Below, piece after piece: positions 538 through 18,090 of a stretch of 64,000 bases of DNA (the first letter of the stretch is position 1; each line of letters opens with the position of its first letter). Position numbers and translations under genes: made by a program. Origin of the DNA: a virus; the IMG/VR virus record IMGVR_UViG_3300028384_001275, positions 40,524 through 104,523 of that record. The stretch is one strand, 5' to 3'. The notes under the pieces were generated by a model. The model had not been told where the DNA came from, made no database searches, and saw only the letters and a program-made list of their open reading frames with translations.

Positions 538-1201
538 AAACTGGGATATTGATGATACTCCCCAATATTGGCAGAATATATGTGATGATCCCAGTGTATT
601 TGCTACATGGAAAGAAGTTGAGTATTGCCTTAATAATCCACAGGTATTTGATATTCAGCTAATTGATTCTAGGACTAATCAATACTACGATCTGCAATAC
701 TTCCCCAGACACTGGTCTAAACCTTGCCCTGATGTGTCTGATATTATGGATGCTGTCTCCAATGGACATAATATCGTAATCAATAATTTTAGCTGGGTTA
801 ATCACAAAAAACAAATACTATTGGATCAAATTGAGAATACTTTTCATGGTATAACTGCTGACTTTCATGTTTATGCTGGCATCAAAACTTCAAAGTCATT
901 TAGAATACATGAGGATTATTCTAATAACTTTATTGTCCAAGTGGAAGGAGAAACGCACTGGAAAGTATATAACAATCGTCGATCATTCTTAAACACACAA
1001 ATAAATTATATTCTTAATGAGGATGATTTAGATTGTATTATTGATGTTAAAATGCAACCAGGAGATATTCTCTACATACCACAAGGGTGTTATCATTTAG
1101 CACAACCACAAGAAAAAAGATTGTCTATTAGTATTCCTATGCAATCTAGATTGGCACACTTAAAAATGACAGATCGTAAGTATTATGCTCTCCCCAGTTA
1201 A
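497..1201 (+). CDS. JmjC/cupin-4 (ROXA/YcfD-like) Fe(II) dioxygenase
   Basis: SFRIHED, FIVQVEGETHWKVY and PGDILYIPQGCYHLA are typical cupin-4/JmjC motifs. Confidence 0.85.
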   Translation: MSISSLLQTLTTTKNWDIDDTPQYWQNICDDPSVFATWKEVEYCLNNPQVFDIQLIDSRTNQYYDLQYFPRHWSKPCPDVSDIMDAVSNGHNIVINNFSWVNHKKQILLDQIENTFHGITADFHVYAGIKTSKSFRIHEDYSNNFIVQVEGETHWKVYNNRRSFLNTQINYILNEDDLDCIIDVKMQPGDILYIPQGCYHLAQPQEKRLSISIPMQSRLAHLKMTDRKYYALPS

Positions 1202-1790
1202 TGTATTTCCATACATTTATAAAGCACAGTATGATTTTAATTTTGAATCTATTCAGCATGTAGTAGATCAACATTTAGATGATGCTCGTGAGCGTGGCAA
1301 TCCTGTTACCTTAGAAAAGAATGGTGGCGTCACGAGTGTTGTATTGTGCAAGGAGAATCCTCCTCATGGGTGGCCTTTGTTTGATGATTTTAAGGAGTGG
1401 TTGTTTCCTACTGTAGATGAATTGTGGGAAACTTGGAGAATGCAACCATGCTGTAAAACATTATCTGAGTCTTGGATTAATGTGCATCCCCCTGGTGCAT
1501 ATACTGCTGAGCATCATCATCAAAATGTCCAAGTTGCTGTATCCTGCTATCTCTCAGTGCCAGAAAATAGCGGTAGGTTTGTCATACAAAATCCACTAAA
1601 CATTTATAAGTTGGGTGAACCACTCAACTATCACTATTATGATCAGGAGATGGATTGGATGCCTATTGATGTGCAAACGAATGATGTGCTATTCTTCCCA
1701 GGTTGGTTAAACCATAAAACTGAAGTCAATAAATCAAACGACAATAGATATATTATGTCAATGAATATCATGGGTAATCTTAATGCTTGA
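1185..1790 (+). CDS. Putative 2OG-Fe(II) oxygenase, TIGR02466-like
   Basis: SWINVHPPGAYTAEHHH, YL, LFFPGWLNH and RYIMSMN motifs. Confidence 0.85.
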   Translation: MLSPVNVFPYIYKAQYDFNFESIQHVVDQHLDDARERGNPVTLEKNGGVTSVVLCKENPPHGWPLFDDFKEWLFPTVDELWETWRMQPCCKTLSESWINVHPPGAYTAEHHHQNVQVAVSCYLSVPENSGRFVIQNPLNIYKLGEPLNYHYYDQEMDWMPIDVQTNDVLFFPGWLNHKTEVNKSNDNRYIMSMNIMGNLNA

Positions 1791-2487
1791 AGTCCACGAC
1801 ACTAAAATTGTAAATTGGCAGTTGTTTGAGAAGATTGTGCATCTTCCCTACAAATTCACACGCACTGATGTGCCACCAACAGAATCACGTCCAGAGATAG
1901 ATTTCGCTGGTCTTTATTGGACTCATCAGCTATACAATTACTGTCCAGTTTCTGACCCTGACTATTTTCAGAATGCAGGACTTGATGGTAGTGATGATCC
2001 TATGTGGAAAGATATCCTCACCTATCTAGAGGCAACTGTGCCTAGTATGCCCCCTCGGGATAATCTTTATAGTGCATATATTAATGTATTGCGAGAGGGC
2101 AACAATCCTGGCATTCATGTTGATGCACCATATTTTGTGCCTGACAATCAAACAGTGCTGTTATATTTGAATCCTGATTGGGATCCAGAATGGGGTGGCG
2201 AAACTATATTTTTTGATCATGATCTTGACGCAAAAACTCTTGTTGCTCCTCGTGCTGGTCGTATTGTTATCTTTGATGGCAGGATCCCCCACACAGGAAG
2301 ACCACCAACGCCAAAATACAACCACAACAGGTATATTATGGCATTCAAATATATGAATCCAGAAGAGCGAGAGAAACTATTTGTTGACTATGAATTGAAT
2401 AACATGCCACCTGTTGAGGATCGTGGCATCGCGGGTTTTGATTCCCTGACAGTAAAAGAAATCTGGAAAACACTTGACAAAATCTAA
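1783..2487 (+). CDS. 2OG-Fe(II) oxygenase, prolyl-4-hydroxylase-like
   Basis: IHVD, LLYLNPDWDPEWGGETIF, GRIVIFDGRIPH and RY motifs. Confidence 0.88.
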   Translation: MLEVHDTKIVNWQLFEKIVHLPYKFTRTDVPPTESRPEIDFAGLYWTHQLYNYCPVSDPDYFQNAGLDGSDDPMWKDILTYLEATVPSMPPRDNLYSAYINVLREGNNPGIHVDAPYFVPDNQTVLLYLNPDWDPEWGGETIFFDHDLDAKTLVAPRAGRIVIFDGRIPHTGRPPTPKYNHNRYIMAFKYMNPEEREKLFVDYELNNMPPVEDRGIAGFDSLTVKEIWKTLDKI

Positions 2488-2507
2488 AGAGTGGATATTG
2501 TTAAATA
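2474..2507 (+). promoter_or_regulatory. Overlapping sigma70-like and late-type promoter
   Basis: TTGACA (2474-2479), 16 nt, TATTGT (2496-2501), followed directly by TAAATA (2502-2507); GGAGG RBS before ATG 2534. Confidence 0.5.
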
Positions 2508-2533
2508 GTATTGGACCCTCTAGGGAGGATCAA

Positions 2534-2695
2534 ATGTTCACAGTCAAGTCAGCACTCCTCAATCGTGAGGAAAAAAACCTAGTCAGACGTGCCCTCTTTC
2601 TTTATCAGAAAGATTGTTATAATCGATATGGTGATCTGACAGACGAGCAACACGAACTAATAGCGGAGATTGCGGACAAACTACATTTACGATAA
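2534..2695 (+). CDS. Small hypothetical protein
   Basis: ORF with start moved to ATG 2534 after the GGAGG RBS. Confidence 0.7.
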   Translation: MFTVKSALLNREEKNLVRRALFLYQKDCYNRYGDLTDEQHELIAEIADKLHLR

Positions 2696-2697
2696 TT

Positions 2698-3318
2698 ATG
2701 GAAGTATTGCCTTTATTTTCTACCCCTGTTTATCTTGATACCTGTGACATTCCTGAGATAGACTTTAACATGGAGTGGCAGAATCCTTGCGGTGATGATC
2801 CTACTTACGGCAACAATGGTAAGATCTCAGCTAATACTAATTGGTTAGAAGTTGGATTGTATAGTGATCTGAAACGCACGATTGAAGCACACCTCTCACA
2901 ATATGTTTTTGGTGTGCTGGGTAGTGGTAAAGGCATCACATTAGAGCACCAATCCTCCTGGGTCAATAGACACGACAGGGGAGATCGTGCTGCCAATCAT
3001 GTGCATGTGAATAGCATGTTTAGTGGTGTTTTATACTTAGAGGTCCCACCAGATTCGGGGGATCTAATTTTTAATGTTCCTGCATCTGTGCCAACCTATT
3101 GCACCAACACCGTAAGTTTGGATATTGTAGAACCCAACGTCTACAATCAGCGTGAAGTCCCATTCACACCTGATAGGGGAGATATTATTATTTTCCCATC
3201 ACATCTTCCACATTATGTTACAGCTAACAACAGCGATTTGCCAAGATATAGTCTGGCATTCAACTATTTTGCTAAAGGTGTGGTAGGATACAACGAATCG
3301 CGGTTGCATCTGAAATGA
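2698..3318 (+). CDS. Putative 2OG-Fe(II) oxygenase, TIGR02466-like
   Basis: SWVN, HVHVNSMFSGVLYL, IIFPSHLPHYV and RYSLAFN motifs. Confidence 0.88.
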   Translation: MEVLPLFSTPVYLDTCDIPEIDFNMEWQNPCGDDPTYGNNGKISANTNWLEVGLYSDLKRTIEAHLSQYVFGVLGSGKGITLEHQSSWVNRHDRGDRAANHVHVNSMFSGVLYLEVPPDSGDLIFNVPASVPTYCTNTVSLDIVEPNVYNQREVPFTPDRGDIIIFPSHLPHYVTANNSDLPRYSLAFNYFAKGVVGYNESRLHLK

Positions 3319-3662
3319 CAACACCTTTAATGATCGGTGAAAGTGTGCCACTAGAAGTTAAAAAGATTATAGAGACACTTACATTGGGACGTAGAGCAAG
3401 ATTTAGAGGTTGTGAGGGATTCATTGATTTTATTTCAGATCAATATATAACTATTTGTTATAAGCAGAAGAAAAGTTTGCCTGGTAGTCGTAGACCATAT
3501 GAAAACTCTAGTATTTTAGTATATCATTGGGACTGGGATGATTTAGAGGTTGATGATAGTGCCATGCACGATGTTAGGCAATATAGAGGAAAGATTAATG
3601 ATCACCCAGGTAACGAAATGTTACCGTATACGCCCCAGGCGGCGGATGTTGCCATTCTCTAG
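3315..3662 (+). CDS. Hypothetical protein
   Basis: ORF coupled to the upstream gene by an ATGA overlap. Confidence 0.7.
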   Translation: MTTPLMIGESVPLEVKKIIETLTLGRRARFRGCEGFIDFISDQYITICYKQKKSLPGSRRPYENSSILVYHWDWDDLEVDDSAMHDVRQYRGKINDHPGNEMLPYTPQAADVAIL

Positions 3663-3678
3663 CGTGATGGTGTATAAT
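3649..3678 (+). promoter_or_regulatory. Sigma70-like early promoter
   Basis: TTGCCA, 18 nt, TATAAT upstream of ATG 3702. Confidence 0.65.
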
Positions 3679-3701
3679 TTCAGAGTAACGCACCCCACCC
3701 G

Positions 3702-4304
3702 ATGACCAGCACCCTCTCCAAGGTATACCGCGACCTGATCCCCGTTGCCCTGAATGAGATGACCAGCATCCTGAATCAAATGCTTAGTGTGATCGATAAG
3801 GACCTGGATGGTATGGGTGGCACTGTTGATAAGACTAAGTTTCTGGCACATGTGCAACCCGTAGCTTTTAAGAATGCTGCTGCACGTCTTGGCATTGACT
3901 ATAACTTTGTCAATGCAAATGGTTACGACACTGAGATCAACATCCACGAAGAAGGTGCTGAGATCCGTTTTCGTATTGAGGACAAAATGTCTCTGATGGA
4001 ATCCACTGATTCTTTTGCTACTGGCAATAACCACAGCAAAGTCAAAGATTACACTCACTTTGTGATGAAGTTGCAGAATGTGGGTAACATCTTCACATCA
4101 TGCTTTGCTGCTCTAATTGATGTCCCCAATCTGTCAGATGGCAGCGGTTGGAATGATACTGTCACCAAGTCAGGTAAGAATAACAATGGTTTCTCTTCCC
4201 TGAAGATTCTTAAGGAAGATGCTGATAAGATTGAGGTGATCTATGGTAGCATTCGTAATGCCAAGAAATTCATCCACTCCGAATACGAAACTCTCGATGC
4301 TTGA
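3702..4304 (+). CDS. Hypothetical protein, possible PD-(D/E)xK restriction-endonuclease-like
   Basis: GYD...IEDK motif; overlaps the start of a DNA methyltransferase gene. Confidence 0.5.
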   Translation: MTSTLSKVYRDLIPVALNEMTSILNQMLSVIDKDLDGMGGTVDKTKFLAHVQPVAFKNAAARLGIDYNFVNANGYDTEINIHEEGAEIRFRIEDKMSLMESTDSFATGNNHSKVKDYTHFVMKLQNVGNIFTSCFAALIDVPNLSDGSGWNDTVTKSGKNNNGFSSLKILKEDADKIEVIYGSIRNAKKFIHSEYETLDA

Positions 4305-5084
4305 TATTAATACCACACACCACATGAATTGCATCGATGGGATGCAACAAATGGATGCTGAAAGTGTTGACCTAGTTATCACCTCTCCTCCATATTCATG
4401 AAGGTTGCAGATGAGTTGTCTCGTGTGCTCAAACCTGGTGGAGTCATTATGTGGAATGTCAACGATGCCACGGTGAAAGGTAGTGAAACTGGTAGTAGTT
4501 TTCGGCAGTGCCTTTACTTTATGGATGCTCATGGTCTCCGTTTACATGATACTATGATCTATGAAAAGACAGGCACAGCGTTTGCATCTGGTCCAAATAG
4601 TGTGAGATATACTCAGATCTTTGAGTATTGTTTTATTCTATCCAAGGGCAAACCTAAGACAATTAATCTTATTCAAGACAAGAAGAATAAGTGGGCAGGA
4701 TATACTTCATTCGGCAATGCTGTGACTAGGAAGAAGGATGGCACCTTCAATGATCCTGGTAAGAAGAGTAATGCCATCAGAGAATGGGGAGTGAGGACTA
4801 ACATCTGGAAGATCAAGAATAGTGGTGGTTTTGGACAATCATCCAAGGCAAGTTACAAACATCCTGCTACAATGCCTGAAGAGTTAGCTAGAGGTCATGT
4901 AATTACATGGTCTAATGAGAAAGATCTAATTCTTGATCCTTTTATGGGTGCTGGCACCACTGCCCAGGTTGCCCTAGAAGAAAACCGCAATTTTATTGGT
5001 TTTGAGATTGATGATACATATCATCAAATGTGTGTTGACAGAATCACACCAATGCAGGACAATTTATTGACACGGTTATGCTAA
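4297..5084 (+). pseudogene. Beta-class N4-C/N6-A DNA methyltransferase, frame-disrupted in this sequence
   Basis: 4297-4401 encodes MLDINTTHHMNCIDGMQQMDAESVDLVITSPPY then S-stop; the remainder (RVLKPGG, HPATMP, LDPFMGAGTT, FIGFEID) continues in another frame from about 4395. Confidence 0.85.
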
Positions 5085-5281
5085 GAAACAAAGCAAAAGT
5101 AACACCTAAGAGTGATAAAGCAAAGAAGATCTTTGCTGAATATCTCAACAGTAAACCTATTGTAACTGTTGAGCATAAACGTGAGGACCGTTGGTTTTTC
5201 TCTAGCATAGATAATCCAGACTTCTGGTTTTGGGTTGATGTGCCTAAAGATATCAACTGGGAGTATACTTTAATCGATTAA
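5078..5281 (+). CDS. Hypothetical protein
   Basis: ORF in a tightly packed operon. Confidence 0.7.
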   Translation: MLRNKAKVTPKSDKAKKIFAEYLNSKPIVTVEHKREDRWFFSSIDNPDFWFWVDVPKDINWEYTLID

Positions 5282-5335
5282 TTGCCCCAACTGCCCTACA
5301 TGTCCATGACTGTAACTATCACCAGCGAGAAATCT

Positions 5336-5614
5336 ATGTCTAACTATGAGAAATTGGTAGAAGACCTGAAAGAATTGATTTCAGGATATGTTGAAGAAGA
5401 TCAAGTATCTCCCACACAATTTGTGTGTGCTCTAAGAGCAGCATTGGCAGAGTGTCATGAATGGCATGAAACTAGATCAGTATTGCTCGAAGATACTCTA
5501 GAATTGCTCAAGACAAGGAAAACTGTAGTCACTGAGCGTGAGTTACTCTTAGAGACCACAGAAGATGTCGCTAAAGTAAACTATCAAGCAGGTTTTTGGC
5601 CTGGAAATGATTAA
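5336..5614 (+). CDS. Hypothetical protein (start uncertain, 5282-5336)
   Basis: ORF; resembles 7886..8140. Confidence 0.65.
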   Translation: MSNYEKLVEDLKELISGYVEEDQVSPTQFVCALRAALAECHEWHETRSVLLEDTLELLKTRKTVVTERELLLETTEDVAKVNYQAGFWPGND

Positions 5615-5841
5615 TGAGTGCAGCAGATAACGCAGAGCAAGCATCACGAAAGATGCTTGCTAAATTACAAGAATATAACAATAAGATTCTTGGTAGTGAT
5701 GACATCGAAGAATCAATTATTGAGCGAGTGAATGCAGCAACAGAATTGCGGGACATATTGCAATCAACCCGAAAAATGCAAGAGTTGGCAGCAAAGCAAC
5801 ATCGACATTCTAAGCAGAGTGAGACTACCGATGAAGTATGA
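5614..5841 (+). CDS. Hypothetical helical protein
   Basis: TAATG coupling to the upstream ORF. Confidence 0.65.
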   Translation: MSAADNAEQASRKMLAKLQEYNNKILGSDDIEESIIERVNAATELRDILQSTRKMQELAAKQHRHSKQSETTDEV

Positions 5842-6388
5842 TAAACCTATAGTTATTGATAATTACTTTCCAGATTGGTTAGTTGATCATGTTGGAGATT
5901 ATTTTGCTGGTTATCCTGTAACCTTTACAAATTCTCCAACTGCTGTATATGAAAATGCCAAATTCTTTGGCAATATGATAATGACTGACGATCAATGGAC
6001 TGTGCCTGAAGATATTCAGTCTTGGTTTATTGAATACTTTAATAACTGCATTTATTTTGATATTTGTAAGAATGATAACATCACACATTGTCATCGCATT
6101 CTATTAAATGGGCAGGTGAAAGGTCAAAAATCACAGAATCACTGTGATTCAGATTATGATTGTTATTTGAGTGTGATTTATCATGCTTCAGGCACATCTG
6201 GAAGCACAGTGTTTGTGAATGATTCTGATGAGGATGTGCAAGAGGTAGAGTTTAAGCCTGGGCGCATGATTCTCTTCAATTCTACACTCTGGCATCGTGG
6301 AGATCCACCAGTTGATGATAACTATCGTGTGAGTCTTGGTTGTGTTTATCCCATGGTGCCCATTCAGGATCTTCCCCACCCCGTGTGA
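5831..6388 (+). CDS. 2OG-Fe(II) oxygenase superfamily protein
   Basis: NHCD, GSTVF, PGRMILFNSTLWHRG and RVSL motifs; start placed at ATG 5831 (MKYDKPIVIDN). Confidence 0.85.
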   Translation: MKYDKPIVIDNYFPDWLVDHVGDYFAGYPVTFTNSPTAVYENAKFFGNMIMTDDQWTVPEDIQSWFIEYFNNCIYFDICKNDNITHCHRILLNGQVKGQKSQNHCDSDYDCYLSVIYHASGTSGSTVFVNDSDEDVQEVEFKPGRMILFNSTLWHRGDPPVDDNYRVSLGCVYPMVPIQDLPHPV

Positions 6389-9127: not shown

Positions 9128-10366
9128 ATGATCACCCTTCGTCCCCATCAGTCCCGTGCTCTCGCAGCAATGAGCGCCGCTGATCACGGTCAGGTTATTG
9201 TGCCAACTGGTGGCGGCAAGACTATCATCATGATTGAGCACGCTAAGCAACAACTAGAGCAAAAACCTTCCACCATTGTTGTTGTCGCTCCGCGCATTCT
9301 CCTCGCTAATCAACTCAGCACGGAGTTTATGCAAACAATCAGCGCAACATGGACGCATGTTTGCCATGCTCACAGTGGCGAAACGCATTACTTTAGCTCT
9401 ACCAAGAGTGACAAAATTGCACTCTTCAATGATACTGCACGGGCAGCAGGTGAGTCCTGCATCATCTTCACTACCTACCACAGTTTGCGTCGTGTTGTTG
9501 ATAGTGGCATCGACGTTGATGCTATCTATTTTGATGAAGCACACAATGCTTGCACTAAACACTTCTTTGTAAGTGTTGCTGCTATGAGTATGATTGCAGA
9601 CAAAAAGTATTTCTTCACTGCAACACCTCGCGTCAGCAATAAGCATGACCGTGGTATGAATAACCGTGAGATCTTCGGTCCCGTTATTGAGAATGTCCCT
9701 GCCCCTGAGTTAATTCAAGGCGGTCACATTCTTCCCCCTACGATTGTCCCTTTCGAGACAGATCACACCGTTGATAAGAAGAATCCACACCTTGTGCATA
9801 GCAACACTGTGCAGGATATTATTGACAATCTCGATGAGACTGACGCTGCAAAAGTGTTGGTAGCTGTGCCATCTTCCCGTGTGCTGGGTAACATTCTGGG
9901 TCACACAGATCTCTTGTCTGAGTTGTCTGATCGTGGATATGATGTCCTCCACGTTACATCTAAGTTTGGCGCATATGTCAACAAACAGAAAGTTTCCCGT
10001 GAAACATTCTTCGACACGTTGACAGCATGGGGCAAAGATTCTGATCGTAAATTTGTACTCTTCCACTACAGCATTCTGTCGGAAGGTATCAACGTCCCTG
10101 GTCTCACTCATTGCATCATGCTCCGTAATCTTAACGTGGTTGAGATGGCACAAACGATCGGACGTGTTATCCGTCTCGATCCTACTGACGCTGCTAAATT
10201 GCAGTCGGGTGAGTTACAGCCTCAGCAGTGGGGTTTCTATAACAAACCCACAGGATTTGTGACTGTCCCAGTTCATCGTAACTACGGCAAAGCAGTTATT
10301 AAGCGTTTGCAGCGTATCACGGATGAAATTTTTGTAAAGGGAGTGCCTGCCACTGCATTAGTCTAA
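9128..10366 (+). CDS. Superfamily 2 DEAD/DEAH-box helicase (ResIII-like)
   Basis: LRPHQ, PTGGGKT, DEAH, TAT, LSEGINVP and QTIGRVIR motifs. Confidence 0.92.
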   Translation: MITLRPHQSRALAAMSAADHGQVIVPTGGGKTIIMIEHAKQQLEQKPSTIVVVAPRILLANQLSTEFMQTISATWTHVCHAHSGETHYFSSTKSDKIALFNDTARAAGESCIIFTTYHSLRRVVDSGIDVDAIYFDEAHNACTKHFFVSVAAMSMIADKKYFFTATPRVSNKHDRGMNNREIFGPVIENVPAPELIQGGHILPPTIVPFETDHTVDKKNPHLVHSNTVQDIIDNLDETDAAKVLVAVPSSRVLGNILGHTDLLSELSDRGYDVLHVTSKFGAYVNKQKVSRETFFDTLTAWGKDSDRKFVLFHYSILSEGINVPGLTHCIMLRNLNVVEMAQTIGRVIRLDPTDAAKLQSGELQPQQWGFYNKPTGFVTVPVHRNYGKAVIKRLQRITDEIFVKGVPATALV

Positions 10367-10474: not shown

Positions 10475-10825
10475 ATGCGTAAGATCGAATCTCAAATGTG
10501 TGCCGCAGTCCAGAAAAACATTGACTGGCAATCTGGTAACACTTCTGTTCACTTTGATCCTGAAACTGGCGTCTCTGTTGTGCGTCTTCATGGCAACAAG
10601 ATCGCTGAGGTTTCTGATAACGACATGACAATTTTTGATGGTGGTTGGCAGACTACTACCACTAAATCACGTCTGAATGCACTTTGCCAAGAATTTTGCA
10701 TTGCTGGTGAAGGTGTTTTCCAGAAAAACTATCAGTGGTTTGTGCGTAAGTTTGTTGCAGAATCTCCCATCACTGGTAAAGTTTATAACGTAGAAGATTT
10801 TGAGAATGGTTTCATCTTTGCCTGA
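10475..10825 (+). CDS. Hypothetical phage protein
   Basis: ORF MRKIESQM...LHGNKIA...GGWQTTTTKSRLNAL behind the promoter. Confidence 0.8.
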   Translation: MRKIESQMCAAVQKNIDWQSGNTSVHFDPETGVSVVRLHGNKIAEVSDNDMTIFDGGWQTTTTKSRLNALCQEFCIAGEGVFQKNYQWFVRKFVAESPITGKVYNVEDFENGFIFA

Positions 10826-10881
10826 TTATGTTTGCAACACTTTCTAAGAAAAGATCCAAATCTAATCTCATCACAATTCAC

Positions 10882-11016
10882 ATGAAATTCCTTCTTCTCG
10901 TTATCATCGGTGTCCTGATCTACAATAGCAACGACACTCGATTTTTTATCTCAGATCAATTAAACAATGCTGCTGAGATTGTCCGCCCCGATCCTAACAT
11001 TCAAATTCGTTTCTGA
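10882..11016 (+). CDS. Small membrane-anchored protein (start 10828 or 10882)
   Basis: MKFLLLVIIGVLIY hydrophobic N-terminus. Confidence 0.6.
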   Translation: MKFLLLVIIGVLIYNSNDTRFFISDQLNNAAEIVRPDPNIQIRF

Positions 11017-11018
11017 TC

Positions 11019-11027
11019 TGCTATAAT
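11019..11027 (+). promoter_or_regulatory. Extended -10 promoter
   Basis: TGcTATAAT in the intergenic gap before 11052. Confidence 0.55.
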
Positions 11028-11051
11028 TACTAACAAAGCTAATTAACAACA

Positions 11052-11684
11052 ATGTCTGACAATCTTTCACCTAATCTATCTGATTCAATCACACAGGAAA
11101 CTTATGCTCTCTTCCCAACTCCTGTCACTAGATATCATCTCCGTAACCACGATGATATAAAGAAACAAATCCTAGATTGGATGAAAGAGCAACAAATCCT
11201 CCCACAAAATCCTAGACAAGCAATCTGCCATAACGTCGCACAAATTGGTCCTAATAATGCACCAACTAACGACATTCCTGACTTAACTAAATCCCTCCTC
11301 CAAGCAGTTGACTTTCATAATGCTAACGCATCTGCTTACCAATCTAACTTCCAAATCTCAGATTCTTACCTAGAGTTAGCTAATGAAGGTGCAATCTATG
11401 CTCCTCACGAACATTCAAACTGCATCTATTCCCTCACCTATTTCATTAACTTTCAAGACTCAACTCAACACTCTTTCCTTAAATTTAGAAAAAATGTTGC
11501 ATCTAATCATTACCCAATCCTTCAATTAGATTCTGATACCCCAACAGCATATAATCTCACAGAAGCAACATTTAACATGGAAGAAGGTGATGTTATCATC
11601 TATCCATCAAATCTTACTCATGGTTTTGACTCTAACCCACAACAAGATAGAATTACCCTAACCGCTAACATCATCACTGCCTAA
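11052..11684 (+). CDS. Putative 2OG-Fe(II) oxygenase, TIGR02466-like
   Basis: LFPTPV, PHEHSNC, EGDVIIYPSNLTHG and RITLTAN motifs. Confidence 0.87.
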   Translation: MSDNLSPNLSDSITQETYALFPTPVTRYHLRNHDDIKKQILDWMKEQQILPQNPRQAICHNVAQIGPNNAPTNDIPDLTKSLLQAVDFHNANASAYQSNFQISDSYLELANEGAIYAPHEHSNCIYSLTYFINFQDSTQHSFLKFRKNVASNHYPILQLDSDTPTAYNLTEATFNMEEGDVIIYPSNLTHGFDSNPQQDRITLTANIITA

Positions 11685-11694
11685 ACTAACAACA

Positions 11695-11877
11695 ATGCCC
11701 CAAAGACTTCAACTCCTACTTGACCTCTATGATCAACAAACTCTCCCCCCTGATCAACAAATAGAAATGGCACAGTTTCTAATAGATACGGGACTAAATG
11801 AAACCCTCTTACAATATCAACAACTATGCGACTATTTCATCATTGAAGGACTATGTTATGATGTCCAATATACATGA
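11695..11877 (+). CDS. Hypothetical protein
   Basis: ORF with the same TAACAACAATG leader as 11052. Confidence 0.65.
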   Translation: MPQRLQLLLDLYDQQTLPPDQQIEMAQFLIDTGLNETLLQYQQLCDYFIIEGLCYDVQYT

Positions 11878-11887
11878 CTAAACTAAC

Positions 11888-11923
11888 AGTTTTCCACAAC
11901 TATCCGCGTTTCTGTGGAAAACT
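11888..11923. repeat. Inverted pair of cyanobacterial-type DnaA boxes
   Basis: AGTTTTCCACA, 14 nt, TGTGGAAAACT; TTTTCCACA at 11890-11898 (+) and 11913-11921 (-). Confidence 0.7.
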
Positions 11924-11995
11924 AAAAAGCATTAAATAAATATAGGTTGGTGTTTTATATGCCCTCCTAAATAGGTCCACAAATAGTTACCTCGG

Positions 11996-12025
11996 ACTGT
12001 AACACATCGACTCTGAGTTTGTCAA
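11996..12025 (-). promoter_or_regulatory. Antisense sigma70-like promoter pointing at the DnaA-box pair
   Basis: Minus strand TTGACA (12025-12020), 18 nt, TACAGT (12001-11996) with TGn extension. Confidence 0.45.
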
Positions 12026-12061
12026 CTATTCTCGGAGACTAACACAAACTGCCCACAGTGC

Positions 12062-12090
12062 TTGACAATGCCCACCAAATCTGCAACAAT
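12062..12090 (+). promoter_or_regulatory. Sigma70-like promoter
   Basis: TTGACA, 17 nt, (TGc)AACAAT, preceded by a CTGCCCAC half-element. Confidence 0.45.
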
Positions 12091-12133
12091 ACATACATCA
12101 ACTCAAGGAGGAGTTTCTAACATCAACTGACTT

Positions 12134-12322
12134 ATGGGAAGGACTTACAAACGCAACGACCTGCACAATAGCAGACGACCCAAATCTATCAGAGAAAAAC
12201 GACAGTTTAGCTCTGGTAAAAAGAGATCTCTTGATGATGACTTTTCCACAGACTTTTCCACAGGAAAGTATCAACAAAAGAATCAACGTATTGATGACAC
12301 TAACTGGCAGGACAATCAATGA
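12134..12322 (+). CDS. Small protein with a basic N-terminus
   Basis: MGRTYKRNDLHNSRRPKSIREKR; AGGAGG upstream. Confidence 0.7.
   Translation: MGRTYKRNDLHNSRRPKSIREKRQFSSGKKRSLDDDFSTDFSTGKYQQKNQRIDDTNWQDNQ
12239..12262 (+). repeat. Tandem 12-mer GACTTTTCCACA x2 (two DnaA boxes inside the ORF)
   Basis: TTTTCCACA at 12242-12250 and 12254-12262; encodes DFST-DFST. Confidence 0.7.
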
Positions 12323-12438
12323 ATGACATCCTTAACGAAGATTGGATCGATTCTCTACTACAAGAGGACGAATCCTTAGACATTGATGACTCTATCCCTA
12401 CAGAGTTTGATGAAGACCTCCGAGGTGATTGGACATGA
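12319..12438 (+). CDS. Very acidic 39-aa peptide (not in ORF track)
   Basis: ATGA overlaps at both ends; MNDILNEDWIDSLLQEDESLDIDDSIPTEFDEDLRGDWT. Confidence 0.7.
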   Translation: MNDILNEDWIDSLLQEDESLDIDDSIPTEFDEDLRGDWT

Positions 12439-12599
12439 AAACTATTCAACTCCCCACACATCCCCCAGTAAATATCAAGATCTGGGACAAACATAACAAA
12501 CACTTTTGGCAATACGATTACGACGGTTGTCCTAAGTATGGTCCCTTCAAATCCTCTCAGCAGGCTATCGCTGACGCAGAGGTATATTCAAGGGGTTGA
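12435..12599 (+). CDS. Small hypothetical protein, 54 aa (not in ORF track)
   Basis: ATGA overlap; ...FWQYDYDGCPKYGPFKSSQQAIADA... Confidence 0.7.
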   Translation: MKTIQLPTHPPVNIKIWDKHNKHFWQYDYDGCPKYGPFKSSQQAIADAEVYSRG

Positions 12600-12890
12600 C
12601 AACACTCTGGGGACAGTTATTCTGTCCCTGTTTGTATCATCCGCGAAGCGGGTATATTAAAAACGCCTACTTCCCTAACCTACAAAAGTATCTCAGCGAC
12701 CTCGATATATTAATCAAATGAAATTGCGGGTCCCCCCTACACAAAAAAATTTTCCAGGGTATAATTCCTCCTGGGAGGTCTCTACAAAGACGACCTTTCG
12801 GGAGGAATTCTTATATATTATAGAATGCGCCGTAGAGACCTCTAGGATCGCCTGTAGCGCCCTTCTAAGTAAGTTTACGAGGTAATCATC
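12596..12890. other. Structured non-coding region at the GC-skew inversion; candidate origin core
   Basis: TTGACA, 16 nt, TATTCT; hairpins at 12610-12628 and 12641-12651; inverted repeats 12763-12809 and 12775-12842; skew switch. Confidence 0.55.
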
Positions 12891-13394
12891 ATGACTAAGA
12901 GAGATCAAGAGTTTATGTCTTTACAGGAGGAGTATGCAGATCTGTTAGGGCATGTATGGAAGGGGAATAAGATGTATGGATGTTATGAGATTATTCGGAA
13001 GTATTACAAGTGGAAGTATGATTATGAGATGATTGACTTCAATGGTAGGAGGAAGTTAACGTTATTTACTGAGGATGCGATTAAGGAGCAAGGAGGTAAG
13101 TGGGTATATCGCTCAGAGTGGGGAGATAGTGAGATTGATTTATCAGAGCTACAGCAAGATGATGTCCTAGTGTTTAGATTGTATACCACTGCACTGGACG
13201 GATCATATAGCGTAAGCAGTAGGCATAATCTTCCAAATCATGGTGGTGTGTATCTAGGCAATGGATTTATGTTGCATCATCCATATAAGCATCATTCAAT
13301 GATTGTTGATTTACAAAATGAAACTAACTCAGTTTATCTAATGTCATGTGTAGGAGCGTTAAGGTCTGGTGAAAACCTGGACAATGCTACATAA
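12891..13394 (+). CDS. NlpC/P60 (C40) peptidase-like protein
   Basis: GCYEIIRKYY catalytic Cys and NHGGVYLGNGFMLHH His motifs, as in lambda gpK-like tail proteins. Confidence 0.8.
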   Translation: MTKRDQEFMSLQEEYADLLGHVWKGNKMYGCYEIIRKYYKWKYDYEMIDFNGRRKLTLFTEDAIKEQGGKWVYRSEWGDSEIDLSELQQDDVLVFRLYTTALDGSYSVSSRHNLPNHGGVYLGNGFMLHHPYKHHSMIVDLQNETNSVYLMSCVGALRSGENLDNAT

Positions 13395-13416
13395 AAGTAA
13401 TAAGGCGTATAGGGTT

Positions 13417-13584
13417 ATGAGTAAAAGGTATGTACTAGAAGTGCAAGAGGATGAGTATGGTGATGTATTTGTGACACTACCTGATGAGTTACTTGAGGAA
13501 GCTGGTTGGGATGTTGGTGATGTGTTAGAGTATGAGGAAGATATTGATGGTAGTGTAATACTACATAAAATTATTGAAGAGTAA
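13417..13584 (+). CDS. AbrB/MazE/SpoVT-like swapped-hairpin protein
   Basis: VTLPDELLEEAGWDVGDVLEY...DGSVILHK. Confidence 0.7.
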   Translation: MSKRYVLEVQEDEYGDVFVTLPDELLEEAGWDVGDVLEYEEDIDGSVILHKIIEE

Positions 13585-13614
13585 AAAAATCGCGAAAAAC
13601 CGCGTTTTAAGATT

Positions 13615-13869
13615 ATGAGTGAAAAAAATCCGATCCTGCAATTTGAAAGCGACGAAGAATATTTGAAGTGGGCGCTAGAGACGTTATCTAAGGCGGTGGA
13701 AAATTTATCTCGACGGCAAGCAATTATTGAGCAAGCGATTCAGAAGATGCCACCACCTGGTCCTGATATGATTCAATATAAGATTCCAGGTGATGATGAC
13801 TATAGTAATATCAAAGTCATTTTAGATAATGTGTTTAAGCGTCTAAATAAATTGGAAACAGAATCTTAA
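13615..13869 (+). CDS. Hypothetical coiled-coil protein
   Basis: ORF. Confidence 0.7.
   Translation: MSEKNPILQFESDEEYLKWALETLSKAVENLSRRQAIIEQAIQKMPPPGPDMIQYKIPGDDDYSNIKVILDNVFKRLNKLETES
13844..13849 (+). promoter_or_regulatory. T4-like late promoter
   Basis: TAAATA about 27 nt before ATG 13876. Confidence 0.55.
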
Positions 13870-13875
13870 TACATA

Positions 13876-16800
13876 ATGGTTGCTTTTTTGCAGGAGACAG
13901 GTAGAAGTTTTCCGAATCCGATCAGCTCGGAGCAATACACTCGTCCATTTAAGCGACCATCATCAAGTAAGTATGAGTCTCATGATAAGTATCCCAATAT
14001 TGGGACAGGGACTGATTACTATATTCAATTTGAGAAAGGTGGTCCTGGGTCTAAACCCCTAGGATCTGATACTGTACATTATTTGGGTGATACTCCTAAG
14101 ATTGATGTGCGGTTTGATTCTAGTGGTAATATTGTAGTTGCGGGTGGCACATGTGATTTAGGACTCACACTACAATGGGATGATAATACAGGGACTGCTG
14201 GCACAACAGGTGCAGACGTATCAGCATCAATTAATGGATCAACAATTAGTGTATCACATGGTAGTGGTGAAAAAGGAAGTGATAGATCTAATTTAGTTTC
14301 TAACGTCGGACCTGGCACATACTCAACCAGTATTAGTAGTAATTACGGTAGGAGTATACGGGACGATCAGATTTGTTTTTATGATGATGATGGTAATGAT
14401 TGTAATGCCACATTATCAATACGGGTGCAGAATCAAGAGCCAACACCAAATGCTCTTAGTTATGCAACCCATCCTAATTTTGAGCGGCAAGCAATTTATC
14501 GTTTCTTCCGTGGTGCAAAGAATGATCACAAGTATAGTGATCTTGCTGGCATGTCTCGCGAAGACTTTGGTTGTGAGAATGAAGATTGGAGTGGAGTTGC
14601 GCGAGGGTATAACAAAGAGCCGCGTGATGGCAGACCTTCATTCTACCTGATGAATAAAGAGGTAACAGGCAGTAGTCCAATCAAACTATATTATTCATAT
14701 TGGCCAGATAACACAGTATTACACTTTGGTAGCGGAAACCCATCGGGCATTACAGTTGGATGTGGTAGAAACAAATACAAATATGTAAAGACCATTGGAT
14801 ATGGTTTTGCAACAGAATCTGCTGCGGGTGATTTCAAGGGATCTGCAGAGAATGCAGTGCCTTTATATCATTATCGCAAAGGTGTATATCAAAATGGACA
14901 GCAGGGAAAAGATATCGATGATTTATATACGATCGATCCCGCAAGTGAAGTTAACCTGAGTGGCGGTCCTATTGCTCCTAAGGATGCCCTGAGCGGAGAA
15001 TATGTGTATCAGGGTATCTTGTGTTATATTTTTGCGTCAGATGTTGTAGATGCACCTACGATCGAATATGTTGAGGGCACTGCAATCGGACCCACAGGTC
15101 AATGTGTAGATAAAACTGACTGGTATGACTATGGAATTGAAGGTAGCGGATATGGCGATGATGAATATCGCAGATTTGATCCAGCCTCATATGCAAACTA
15201 TGTGGCTGAGAGTGAGAATAGTAAAGGATATGCACCAACCACTCCTGGCACTGCGCTCTGGAATAGTGATAATGTAACTATTCAAAATGAAGATGCACAC
15301 TTCGAGTGGTTTTACGGATTGAATGGCGCAGTCAAAGCAGCACTTCCTCGTTATCTTGGATTTGAGGATGCATACGATTCTCAGTTTATGTTTTATCTGT
15401 ATGACACATCATACCCATGGAATGGTCCGATCTATGGAATCCAATATACATTGAATGATGTGCCATGTTGTCCCAATACAACTATTCCTGGACAAGGAGA
15501 AGATGATGATGAGCCTGGATGTGTTCCTCATGAATCATACCATTCACATTTTTATGAAATCAAACGAGACGCTTGGGAAACAACCAAGACACGTCTAAAG
15601 ATCAATGATGGTAAAGAAGATGTCAATGCAAACTTTACTGAAATTGATACACTAAGTCCAAGAATTTTATTTCGTTATACAAGTAGAGATGGTGATTGGA
15701 ATCGTGGTGATACTATTAATGGATGGTTTGTTAACGCAGTTTTCTATTATGGAGATGAGTTGAAAGTTGGTGTTATGCACCTTAGTGGCAATGGTAATGA
15801 TTTCACTTATAACTCGGCATATACATCTACAGACGGTGGTGCTATTCGCGTATTGGCAGGATATGGTATTCCTAACAAAGCTGCATTTGCTGGCGTCTAT
15901 GAATTTCCAAAGAAGATTTCATATTGGAAGGTTGAGATTTCACCCAATGCATTGATTCCGAATCGCACACTTGATGAAGCGGTACTAAAAGCATATGTTA
16001 ATAAGAAGGGTGAAGTCAGTGAAATTGAAATTATCAATTCTGGTAGAGGATATGAAAACCCTCTGATTAAAGTTATCAACCCAGGTCTACTGGAAGATTT
16101 TAATGCTAACGATACTGCAAAAATTATCAAAGCAAAAGTTGGCATGAATGCCGACTTTGAAAAAGCTATTGAAAATCCAAATGTCACTTTTTCATCAAGA
16201 GATATTGGAAAAGATAGTCATGAGGTATTTGGTATCAAGACAGGACAGTTTAGACCAAAGAATAAAAACAAAAGTCCTTATGTTTCTAAGGAAGCAGTCA
16301 TTGAAGTAACTAAACTTACAGATGAGGGTGGTATTGATAGTGTCCGCATTATTGATGGTGGATCAGGATATAGTAGTGATGAAATTCCTGATGTGTTGGT
16401 AGCAGATCCTGAGTATATCAAATATGATTCACCTCCCCAACCAGGCAAACAAAAAAATAGATTTAATAAGTCTCTAGAATCTATGGGTGCTCATATGGCA
16501 GCATCATGGTCTGAAGTGCAAAACTTGAATTCACTTGCAACATCAAACAAATCGGGTAAGACTAACAAAAAAGAAAGTGGTCTATTAGATACCAGCACTG
16601 AATATACTCAGTCTTCTGTAAACTTTATCAGAGATGGTATTAGTGTAGAGATACCAGATTCTTACATTAGAGTGCCTCAAGAAGAGATTAGTGAAGACGA
16701 ATTGCACATGTGCTTTGACTTGCCTGCAACATGTATTAAAGTTGATGCAAGAACAAACCTTAGTAAGGCATTACCCAAACAGGATCAATTTTCAGAAGTT

Positions 16801-18090
16801 AGTAAATTTAGCACTGGAATTTCAGAATTTGAAAAAGAAGCCATGCCCTATGTTGCTAGGGCAGGAGACTCGGTAGATGCACATGGTGAAAATATGTCAC
16901 ACCTCTATGCGCCCTTCGGAAAAGATCGGTGTATTAAGATGGGACAACCTAAGCTTTATAATATTCAAAGATGGTTTGAGATGCCTTGTCCCTATTTGGC
17001 ACAGAAGCAAGGGGGAGATGAAAACCTCGGTGAAGGTGTATCAAAGAAGAAAAGGAAGAATAGAAAATATGGAAATAAGCAAAGAGCATATGGATATCTT
17101 CCATATCAATATTGTGCATCTAAGGAAGAGAGTGCATCCTTCACAGTATCCATGGAATTTGAAGGTCGGACTATTGGATCTCAGGGCGAAGCATTTATGA
17201 ATTATCTAAACAGAATGCCCAAACCAAAACTTGCTCCTGTAAGAAAAGTTACTAATGGTAAGAAAACATGGAATTGTAATGATGGTGATGTTGAGGGTAG
17301 ATGCTATCACAATGATGACGGTGATGTTGTATTTGTTGCTATCGGGGGAGATGAAAATACCTATGACTATAACAGCATCGATGGGTATAGTGAGTATGAT
17401 CAATTTCAAACTTGGTTACAAGACAACCTAACATCACAGCTAACTCCCACAAGTGCTTATTGGACATTTACAACCACAACCACTACTCCTGGATCAGGTG
17501 TAGAAGGAGATCCAGATTATGTCCCCCCTGTTACTACCACTACTACCGACAATGAAGATGGTGTAGACTTTAATTACCCATATACAGCGTTTAGTGTAGA
17601 TTGCTCTACACCATATCCAGCGCATGAGTGTTGGGATACTTATGCTGGATCTAATGGACCCCTAAATGTCTATTGCGGATACGATAGAAATGGCACGGGC
17701 ATACCTGGAAAACGGTGGTGGGAAATTACAGCATTTAATAGGACAAATCCATTTTGTACATCTTGCCCTCCTGTAGTTTATGGATCTGCATATGCATTCT
17801 TCAATATGAATCAGGGGTCAGGAGCTAGTGTCGGATTGACATATGTGAATGATGCATCTATTGCAATCAATCCACAAAGAATGACAGAAGATGATGAGTT
17901 AAATAATAAGAAAAGAATGGTGCTTGGTCCTTACGACGGAAAGGTTACTATTCGCAACTGGTTGACTGGTGGCACTATTGCTCTAGGTAGATCCATTAAC
18001 AATTTTGGCAATCCATTCTTTGATGAATGCTCTCAGCCAGATGAGGGTAGTGCATGGACAGATGGTCAAACAATTAATGAGGAGTTTTAA
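13876..18090 (+). CDS. Large virion structural protein, 1404 aa
   Basis: IEIINSGRGY and VRIIDGGSGY repeats shared with neighbouring baseplate proteins; follows a late promoter; lies before PAAR-like and gp25 genes. Confidence 0.75.
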   Translation: MVAFLQETGRSFPNPISSEQYTRPFKRPSSSKYESHDKYPNIGTGTDYYIQFEKGGPGSKPLGSDTVHYLGDTPKIDVRFDSSGNIVVAGGTCDLGLTLQWDDNTGTAGTTGADVSASINGSTISVSHGSGEKGSDRSNLVSNVGPGTYSTSISSNYGRSIRDDQICFYDDDGNDCNATLSIRVQNQEPTPNALSYATHPNFERQAIYRFFRGAKNDHKYSDLAGMSREDFGCENEDWSGVARGYNKEPRDGRPSFYLMNKEVTGSSPIKLYYSYWPDNTVLHFGSGNPSGITVGCGRNKYKYVKTIGYGFATESAAGDFKGSAENAVPLYHYRKGVYQNGQQGKDIDDLYTIDPASEVNLSGGPIAPKDALSGEYVYQGILCYIFASDVVDAPTIEYVEGTAIGPTGQCVDKTDWYDYGIEGSGYGDDEYRRFDPASYANYVAESENSKGYAPTTPGTALWNSDNVTIQNEDAHFEWFYGLNGAVKAALPRYLGFEDAYDSQFMFYLYDTSYPWNGPIYGIQYTLNDVPCCPNTTIPGQGEDDDEPGCVPHESYHSHFYEIKRDAWETTKTRLKINDGKEDVNANFTEIDTLSPRILFRYTSRDGDWNRGDTINGWFVNAVFYYGDELKVGVMHLSGNGNDFTYNSAYTSTDGGAIRVLAGYGIPNKAAFAGVYEFPKKISYWKVEISPNALIPNRTLDEAVLKAYVNKKGEVSEIEIINSGRGYENPLIKVINPGLLEDFNANDTAKIIKAKVGMNADFEKAIENPNVTFSSRDIGKDSHEVFGIKTGQFRPKNKNKSPYVSKEAVIEVTKLTDEGGIDSVRIIDGGSGYSSDEIPDVLVADPEYIKYDSPPQPGKQKNRFNKSLESMGAHMAASWSEVQNLNSLATSNKSGKTNKKESGLLDTSTEYTQSSVNFIRDGISVEIPDSYIRVPQEEISEDELHMCFDLPATCIKVDARTNLSKALPKQDQFSEVSKFSTGISEFEKEAMPYVARAGDSVDAHGENMSHLYAPFGKDRCIKMGQPKLYNIQRWFEMPCPYLAQKQGGDENLGEGVSKKKRKNRKYGNKQRAYGYLPYQYCASKEESASFTVSMEFEGRTIGSQGEAFMNYLNRMPKPKLAPVRKVTNGKKTWNCNDGDVEGRCYHNDDGDVVFVAIGGDENTYDYNSIDGYSEYDQFQTWLQDNLTSQLTPTSAYWTFTTTTTTPGSGVEGDPDYVPPVTTTTTDNEDGVDFNYPYTAFSVDCSTPYPAHECWDTYAGSNGPLNVYCGYDRNGTGIPGKRWWEITAFNRTNPFCTSCPPVVYGSAYAFFNMNQGSGASVGLTYVNDASIAINPQRMTEDDELNNKKRMVLGPYDGKVTIRNWLTGGTIALGRSINNFGNPFFDECSQPDEGSAWTDGQTINEEF

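Follow-up and report, generated by a model that had tools for sequence, protein, structure and literature searches.

Cyanomyoviruses are among the most abundant phages of the ocean, and their DNA replication is tied to the light and cell-cycle state of the host. The DNA considered here, a stretch of 64,000 nucleotides (nt) referred to as the window, comprises bases 40524-104523 of the 104.5-kb IMG/VR fragment IMGVR_UViG_3300028384_001275 (estimated to be 58% complete), which derives from a T4-like cyanomyovirus of the family Kyanoviridae with nucleotide matches only to Synechococcus and Prochlorococcus myoviruses. The element in question, between positions 11888 and 12262 of the window, combines four exact copies of the nine-nucleotide word TTTTCCACA with an AT-rich block and two back-to-back sigma70-type promoters. 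Judged by its conservation among relatives, the locus is a control cassette, present as a single copy in each genome and located where uvsW and the early genes of T4-like cyanophages adjoin the baseplate and late genes. The best available hypothesis, which we hold tentatively, is that this cassette is a candidate phage replication origin.

The origins of phage T4 are defined by MotA-dependent promoters. At oriF and oriG a promoter is combined with an AT-rich downstream unwinding element, in which an R-loop formed by the transcript serves as the primer of replication. Such R-loops are removed at a later stage by UvsW, and after the first rounds T4-type phages replicate mostly by recombination (PMC3016281). 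The same source supports, for oriF and oriG, the statement of a preliminary description of this DNA that T4 uses R-loop origins without DnaA. On the T4 genome record (NC_000866), uvsW is followed by uvsY with oriF, annotated with '(-) strand direction', and then by gene 25. In phage lambda, a short antisense RNA is transcribed leftward from the promoter pO, footprints of DnaA cover two DnaA-box-like sites downstream of this promoter, and the pO/pR promoter pair regulates initiation at ori-lambda (PMC3985674). On the host side, TTTTCCACA is the cyanobacterial DnaA-box consensus, as the preliminary description had stated; for Cyanothece, in vitro work has demonstrated that DnaA binds this word, which is also the building unit of the Anabaena and S. 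elongatus origins (PMC4674748, PMC3480399). In full-text searches of the literature, no publication came up in which DnaA boxes are connected with cyanophages or the origin of a cyanomyovirus is mapped.

Box arrays at the junction and their probable reader

The components of the cassette, together with the gene that serves as junction marker, are as follows.

11888-11923: site A, two convergent exact boxes (11890-11898, + strand; 11913-11921, - strand) that form an 11-nt perfect inverted repeat with a 14-nt spacer
11922-11965: AT-rich block of 44 bp (~73% AT), flanked by site A and the leftward promoter and a possible downstream unwinding element
11996-12025, - strand: leftward sigma70-type promoter, with -35 TTGACA (12025-12020), an 18-nt spacer, TG and -10 TACAGT (12001-11996)
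12062-12090, + strand: rightward sigma70-type promoter, with TTGACA, a 17-nt spacer and AACAAT (in relatives mostly TATAAT or TACAAT)
12134-12322, + strand: small conserved gene of 62 amino acids (aa; MGRTYKRND...) that holds site B; start and N-terminus kept in 9/9 aligned phages; phrog_3226
12239-12262, + strand: site B, two tandem copies of the 12-nt unit GACTTTTCCACA within the coding sequence of the 62-aa gene, with boxes at 12242-12250 and 12254-12262
10475-10825, + strand: Kyanoviridae gp96 gene, constant neighbour and junction marker (PF23790 at 1e-52; carried by 426 phage records)

In an alignment of nine phages the order from left to right is site A, AT-rich block, back-to-back promoters and start of the 62-aa gene. 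The four exact boxes previously reported within about 370 bp, at 11890 (+), 11913 (-), 12242 (+) and 12254 (+), were all recovered and span 373 bp. The window holds five exact copies of the word as compared to 1.09 expected from shuffles, and the entire 104.5-kb contig six, four of them within these 373 bp, with no enrichment of one-mismatch copies nearby. Site A follows directly 3' of the stop codon of a 60-aa gene. As the four copies reduce to two structures, an inverted repeat and a tandem duplication, and are not four independent events, clustering within this genome is only modest evidence; the strong evidence for the boxes is their conservation across genomes.

Among 11 named cyanomyovirus genomes, the junction between uvsW and gp96 on the one side and the baseplate genes on the other bears the only box cluster of the genome in eight. 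This cluster comprises 3/6 of the exact copies in S-WAM1 (genus Sokavirus; three direct boxes within 40 bp at the syntenic spot), 4/8 in S-SZBM1 (genus Shenzhenivirus; site A, two extra one-mismatch boxes and a site B tandem identical to the one described here), 3/5 in S-IOM18 and S-RIM8 each, 2/3 in S-SM2 and Syn19 each, 2/5 in S-SM1 and 3/5 in S-H38, where it is located just upstream of gp96. The viral contigs L016-L019 equally possess boxes at the syntenic spot, in varying copy number and orientation. A scan of viral contigs for the convergent box pair, and thus selected on boxes, retrieved at least 120 contigs, and about 50 among those listed have gp96 0.06-2.3 kb upstream of the boxes and AbrB-like and baseplate genes downstream. 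In a second sample of 53 non-redundant loci, drawn via gp96 alone and regardless of boxes, at least one exact box occurs within 3 kb downstream in 21/53 and a tight cluster in 15/53 (28-40%), with a total of 55 boxes versus one for the reversed control; several further loci of this sample have boxes just upstream of gp96. Boxes at the syntenic locus are strongly enriched and conserved; the preliminary description had allowed that they might be neither.

Conservation extends to the single nucleotide. All 9/9 positions of the first box of site A are identical in 8/8 relatives of the nine-phage alignment, as compared to 51% identity in the surrounding non-coding DNA, and in the second box of site B the three third-codon positions are shared by 8/8, 8/8 and 7/8 relatives, versus 53% at such positions elsewhere in the gene. 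Site B is constrained beyond coding need. While spacing (12, 21-25 or 31-36 bp), copy number and orientation shift among lineages, the 9-mer is fixed, which argues for a protein-binding array and not for an RNA hairpin. That the two sites have no DNA-binding role at all, with site A acting as a terminator or RNA hairpin and site B having arisen by slippage within coding sequence, is barely credible on these grounds: although site A can fold as a 12-bp stem in a leftward RNA and the site B duplication encodes DFSTDFST in a real gene, the direct arrays of S-WAM1, S-SM2 and S-H38 cannot form a hairpin, the stem never covaries, and one 9-mer is common to both sites and to different genera. Site A was likewise rejected as a terminator, since the stem is not followed by a U-tract, its fold is not unusual (z = -0.49), no Rfam family matches and the sequence is invariant.

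Denser arrays, with six to eight exact boxes in 150-350 bp, were observed on the viral contigs L031, L095, L038/L130, L070, L089 and L034, so array size varies widely between cyanophage lineages. Contigs L031, L095, L038 and L130 also show a weak match to a profile of the cassette core from which the boxes are left out.

Which protein might read these boxes is suggested by the hosts. A direct box pair is found in 327/401 sampled cyanobacterial genomes, with essentially none in the reversed control; cyanobacterial arrays share the extended form GTTTTCCACAG, and one has the exact 12-bp tandem of site B. The cassette resembles a cyanobacterial oriC in its identical box sequence, extended flanks, 12-bp tandem spacing and mixed orientations. 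It differs by having only four boxes, neither dnaN nor dnaA as a neighbour and no genome-scale skew switch, and by boxes that are optional among relatives, whereas the sampled host-type origins consist mostly of imperfect boxes. Most of the genomes without direct box pairs measure 1.6-3.0 Mb, which is also the range of genome sizes among the hosts of these phages. Five such genomes, of picocyanobacterial type, were sampled; they are labelled Prochlorococcus- or Synechococcus-like according to genome size, GC content and gene order. The domain Bac_DnaA_C (DnaA domain IV) is encoded in 5/5 of them and was not found in five complete box-bearing phage genomes or on this contig, and therefore host DnaA would be the natural reader. 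Host DnaA probably binds the boxes.

Two further observations concern the word itself. Outside cyanobacteria, arrays of three copies of TTTTCCACA are common as well, for instance in Saccharibacteria, Clostridia, Streptococcus, Acidobacteriota and Verrucomicrobiota metagenome-assembled genomes, and therefore the 9-mer alone is not diagnostic of cyanobacteria. Three picocyanobacterial loci, L272 (G120), L273 (G051) and L274 (G004), from two Prochlorococcus-like genomes (GC 0.28) and one Synechococcus-like genome, possess a convergent exact box pair 44-45 bp apart plus a one-mismatch box; the pair is intergenic and away from dnaN, and in both low-GC genomes an Hsp70-like reading frame follows downstream. 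It may mark a second DnaA locus of picocyanobacteria or a conserved promoter under the control of DnaA.

The boxes could instead be operators of a protein other than DnaA, such as the AbrB/MazE-like protein encoded downstream, gp96, the basic 62-aa protein or another host factor, with the identity to the DnaA box being coincidental. The gp96 and AbrB-like genes almost always flank the cassette, AbrB/MazE domains bind DNA (as indicated by the Pfam match), and a distant gp96 relative is annotated as putative transcription regulator. On the other hand, the 9-mer is the exact DnaA consensus, its extended flanks and 12-bp tandem recur in cyanobacterial arrays, and variants in relatives, such as TTATCCACA in L016, remain within DnaA-box space. 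Moreover, P-TIM40, S-TIM4 and S-CAM7 have gp96 (P-TIM40 also the AbrB-like gene) and no boxes, and a PDB sequence search, PHROGs and a protein atlas gave no DNA-binding signal for gp96. We regard such an operator as improbable.

The E. coli datA locus, which is chromosomal and works with IHF, is a DnaA-titrating cluster of high-affinity boxes outside the origin. The phage array is likewise a DnaA-box cluster outside the chromosomal origin, and multiplying phage boxes might in a similar manner soak up host DnaA and shut down initiation on the host chromosome. Such a sink would be served by phage boxes that are perfect versus the mostly one-mismatch boxes of host-type oriC and that are multiplied by phage copy number. 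It is nevertheless a distinctly poor candidate with only two to seven boxes per genome and none in many relatives; unlike datA, the array is always tied to one cassette of promoters and AT-rich block and is not scattered, while a sink needs no fixed position.

Predicted divergent promoters and the position of T4 oriF

The two promoters are placed back to back, the rightward TTGACA beginning 36 bp beyond the leftward promoter. A perfect leftward -35 at fixed distance is present in ~21/35 syntenic loci, and a rightward promoter with a score of at least 10/12 in 57% of these 35 loci versus 5% of control segments. The leftward start is predicted near 11989, and the predicted transcript would traverse the AT-rich block (~24-67 nt from the start) and site A (68-99 nt) in the direction of uvsW, antisense to the 60-aa gene and to a 2-oxoglutarate (2OG) oxygenase-like gene further upstream; in the rightward transcript, which is predicted to begin near 12097, site B lies at ~145-165 nt from the start. 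The least stable 40-mer of the AT-rich block belongs to the lowest 0.26% of the contig, and TAAAtnnnTAAAtAAATATA within the block is conserved in relatives. By eye, without formal test, no clear 13-mer or DnaA-trio periodicity was discernible in the block.

The interval that holds the cassette is delimited by two landmark genes.

9128-10366, + strand: UvsW-type helicase gene, left landmark (Pfam ResIII/DEAD/Helicase_C; the homologue of relatives is annotated as helicase, T4-like gene cluster 36)
13876-18090, + strand: structural gene of 1404 aa, baseplate-wedge-like, right landmark (phrog_22792, phrog_719; syntenic genes of relatives annotated as baseplate wedge subunit)

The genes around the cassette are all on the + strand, which bears out the preliminary description in this respect, and its assignment of the site to an early/late junction is reasonable given the UvsW helicase and small genes upstream and the 1404-aa baseplate-wedge-like protein downstream. 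The position is equivalent to that of T4 oriF, the cassette being separated by 1.5 kb from uvsW on its left and by 1.6 kb from the baseplate-like gene on its right; in Syn19 and S-SM2, gp25 and gp6 are downstream of the cassette. As in oriF, the (predicted) leftward promoter fires towards uvsW with an AT-rich block just downstream, and both phages possess a T4-type replisome and no dedicated initiator gene. In contrast to oriF, with its middle promoter that depends on MotA, the promoter is of the sigma70 type with -35 TTGACA. A uvsY-like reading frame is missing from the predicted leftward transcript, which would run antisense to the genes upstream, and the cassette includes host DnaA boxes, of which T4 origins have none.

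If the cassette is an origin, host DnaA would most likely dock on the boxes and the leftward promoter would fire through the AT-rich block towards uvsW, like the oriF promoter of T4. The transcript, or the opening caused by it, would then start phage replication by a T4-like R-loop route, with DnaA as a helper that stabilises the opening, stalls RNA polymerase or times firing, and not as an essential initiator. Use of the leftward promoter and any R-loop are predictions. Helper functions of this kind have precedents, since in the replicons P1, F, pSC101 and RK2 host DnaA boxes flank the opening region as helpers and DnaA is not the sole initiator. These replicons encode a Rep initiator with iterons, and in this they differ from the cyanophage, in which neither an initiator gene nor iterons were found. 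It is possible, although we would rather doubt it, that the cassette is a T4-like cyanophage origin inherited at the oriF position, in which a promoter for host sigma70 has replaced the MotA-dependent one, host DnaA boxes were added in many lineages, by which the host initiator would help or time an R-loop start, and the blocks of skewed base composition described below are a mutational footprint of strand-asymmetric single-strand exposure to both sides of the origin.

Lambda offers a parallel to the promoter arrangement, and with it an alternative. In both phages the promoters are paired, the short leftward transcript (predicted in the cyanophage) is antisense to an upstream gene and two boxes lie downstream of its promoter, while promoter activity is tied to replication initiation in lambda and by analogy only in the cyanophage. 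Lambda differs in having its own initiator O with iterons and in that its promoters are convergent and those of the cyanophage back to back. DnaA bound downstream of both divergent early promoters might accordingly tune or block them without any origin role, and the replication state of the host would thereby be coupled to early gene expression and to a transcript that runs antisense to the genes upstream. Both box sites are 70-165 nt downstream of the predicted starts of conserved promoters, optional boxes suit a modulator, and DnaA-footprinted sites downstream of pO (PMC3985674) along with a DnaA-stimulated pR provide the lambda counterpart. In lambda, however, the same promoters control the origin itself, so that switch and origin are compatible, and with a transcription switch alone the match with T4 oriF in position and direction as well as the centred skew step would be coincidences. 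A pure transcription switch therefore appears unlikely, if far from negligible.

A local step in GC skew and the weighing of the candidate origin

Base composition changes abruptly across the cassette, between two blocks of genes.

10828-11877, + strand: left skew block with a further 62-aa gene, a 210-aa 2OG-Fe(II) oxygenase-like gene (11052-11684) and the 60-aa gene; defined by third-position skew
12891-13869, + strand: right skew block with NlpC/P60-like (167 aa), AbrB/MazE-like (71 aa) and 84-aa genes; Pfam matches, third-position skew

The base counts given in the preliminary description, 19 C and 6 G at 11281-11340 and 19 G and 2 C at 12961-13020, are exact. GC skew amounts to ~-0.45 over 10850-11900 and ~+0.45 over 12800-13700, and a right-minus-left skew statistic peaks at 12477 (D = 0.74, z = 6.8), the next largest step of the contig being 0.26. 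The local step is real and is the largest of the contig. At 29 syntenic loci the mean step at the cassette has the same sign and is smaller (0.13, versus -0.016 elsewhere). The bias extends ~1 kb to each side and ends at gene borders. It resides in synonymous positions: third-position skew is -0.62, -0.75 and -0.53 for the 62-aa, 2OG and 60-aa genes of the left block and +0.59, +0.9 to +1.0 and +0.59 for the NlpC/P60-like, AbrB/MazE-like and 84-aa genes of the right block (contig mean 0.03, standard deviation 0.27), and none of the 87 four-fold sites of the 2OG gene is a G. Homologues of these genes in other phages are skewed with the same sign and much more weakly. The 60-aa gene, strongly biased here to the left of the cassette, is unbiased in S-WAM1, S-SZBM1 and L018, where it is positioned to the right, which in this tiny sample hints at an effect of position on its bias. 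The sign of the blocks fits a strand-asymmetric exposure that diverges from the cassette.

Several sources of the bias were considered and set aside. An inversion or rearrangement was rejected because the six block genes are intact on the + strand and biased relative to their own coding strand, and amino-acid composition because the bias is strongest at third and four-fold sites. Gene-inherent codon usage is largely rejected, within the limits of a small sample, as homologues are much less biased and other 2OG paralogues on the contig are not outliers. A shift in codon usage between early and late genes may explain the mild mean step of the relatives; for the ±0.45 blocks it is no explanation, since skew is positive in early-type regions further to the left. 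A symmetric R-loop or deamination footprint is not supported as a single process, with loss of G to A on the left versus a purine-rich right block.

The preliminary description had taken the switch from C to G as the mark of a bidirectional origin, which the skew of the contig as a whole does not support: cumulative skew climbs almost monotonically over the 104.5 kb, is lowest where the contig begins and shows only a local dip at the site, and at distances of tens of kb skew is positive in both directions. This bears directly on a classical oriC-like origin, at which DnaA alone would open the DNA and bidirectional forks would write the skew switch. The boxes do adjoin an AT-rich block and the sign of the local step fits a bidirectional origin, but a cumulative minimum on the scale of the contig is not located here, skew is positive far to the left as well, the bias is limited to the immediate surroundings and the boxes are dispensable in relatives that keep the cassette, which makes such an origin very improbable. 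Skew on the scale of replichores is not expected in any case, because T4-type replication proceeds mostly by recombination after the first rounds.

A number of points weigh against the cassette as an origin at which DnaA participates. The junction box cluster was not found in S-CAM7, S-TIM4 and P-TIM40 among the named genomes scanned, P-TIM40 having no boxes at the syntenic spot, and boxes are optional in general, with only 28-40% of the gp96-drawn loci possessing them; they cannot therefore be the essential core of an origin. The box-free core profile matches P-TIM40 (E = 1e-16) and S-TIM4 (E = 1e-6), both without boxes there, and hence the boxes are accessory on a more widely conserved cassette. 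In the five picocyanobacterial-type genomes the exact box is no commoner than the reversed control, and the box arrays upstream of dnaN in three genomes with Synechococcus-like GC content are composed mostly of one-mismatch boxes (one array with eight boxes in 200 bp has two exact ones). The leftward -10 is weak in many relatives, and the AT-rich block is modest, being exceptional at 40 bp and not at 100 bp. The contig, 58% complete, shows no genome-scale skew minimum at the cassette. The skew blocks are not A/T mirror images, as the left one has lost G to A and the right one is C-poor and purine-rich, so that no single symmetric replication or deamination process explains both, and the enrichment of G-runs on the presumed R-loop strands is weak.

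An element that occurs once per genome, at the position of T4 oriF and with perfect host DnaA boxes, is nonetheless a precise target for origin mapping. If DnaA acts here, a T4-type phage, normally independent of the host initiator, would plug into host replication control, and host physiology would have a route to gate phage replication. The extreme, position-linked synonymous bias is a separate puzzle, and could report strand-specific exposure of DNA in vivo.

Neighbouring genes and leader sequences

Between the 62-aa gene with site B and the right skew block, three further features are discernible.

12319-12599, + strand: two more small genes (39 aa and 56 aa) of the rightward early unit, with overlapping start and stop codons and homologues in relatives; phrog_24597
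12608-12630, + strand: terminator-like hairpin plus T-run at the end of the small-gene unit, recognised from the sequence
12738-12806, + strand: promoter-like site (TACACA, 16-nt spacer, TATAAT), then a strong 41-nt hairpin that opens the leader of the downstream operon

The gap past the terminator-like site contains, within 12581-12713, a GGTATATT(A/C)A-like word three times, two of these inside 21-nt repeats (12640-12660 and 12693-12713), the first of which is preceded by a small CCGCGAAGCGG hairpin. The leader at 12766-12895 has a minimum free energy of -43.3 kcal/mol (z = -3.19) and begins with the near-perfect 41-nt hairpin; an alternative pairing of 12775-12785 with 12832-12842 is possible. 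The region 12738-12895 may provide the NlpC/AbrB/baseplate operon with an attenuator or a structured 5' leader. No RNA family of Rfam matched across 10500-14500.

The 60-aa gene (phrog_14990; 11695-11877) is to the left of the cassette here and in L016 and L017, and to the right, after the 56-aa gene, in S-WAM1, S-SZBM1, P-TIM40 and L018/L019, which shows that small genes have changed sides relative to the cassette. A PDB sequence search, PHROGs and the protein atlas provided no lead to the function of gp96. Distant relatives of its family (PF23790) are found in ~40-kb phages of Pseudomonas, Burkholderia, Ralstonia and Stenotrophomonas, and it is one of these that is annotated as putative transcription regulator.

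At least four 2OG-Fe(II) oxygenase-like paralogues and two endonuclease V-like genes are encoded within 12 kb (1185-6388 and 11052-11684), and the extreme G-poor codon choice is restricted to the 2OG paralogue adjacent to the cassette. The gene psbA was not found on this fragment. A single reading frame of 6965 aa, at 22206-43103, is located in its structural region.

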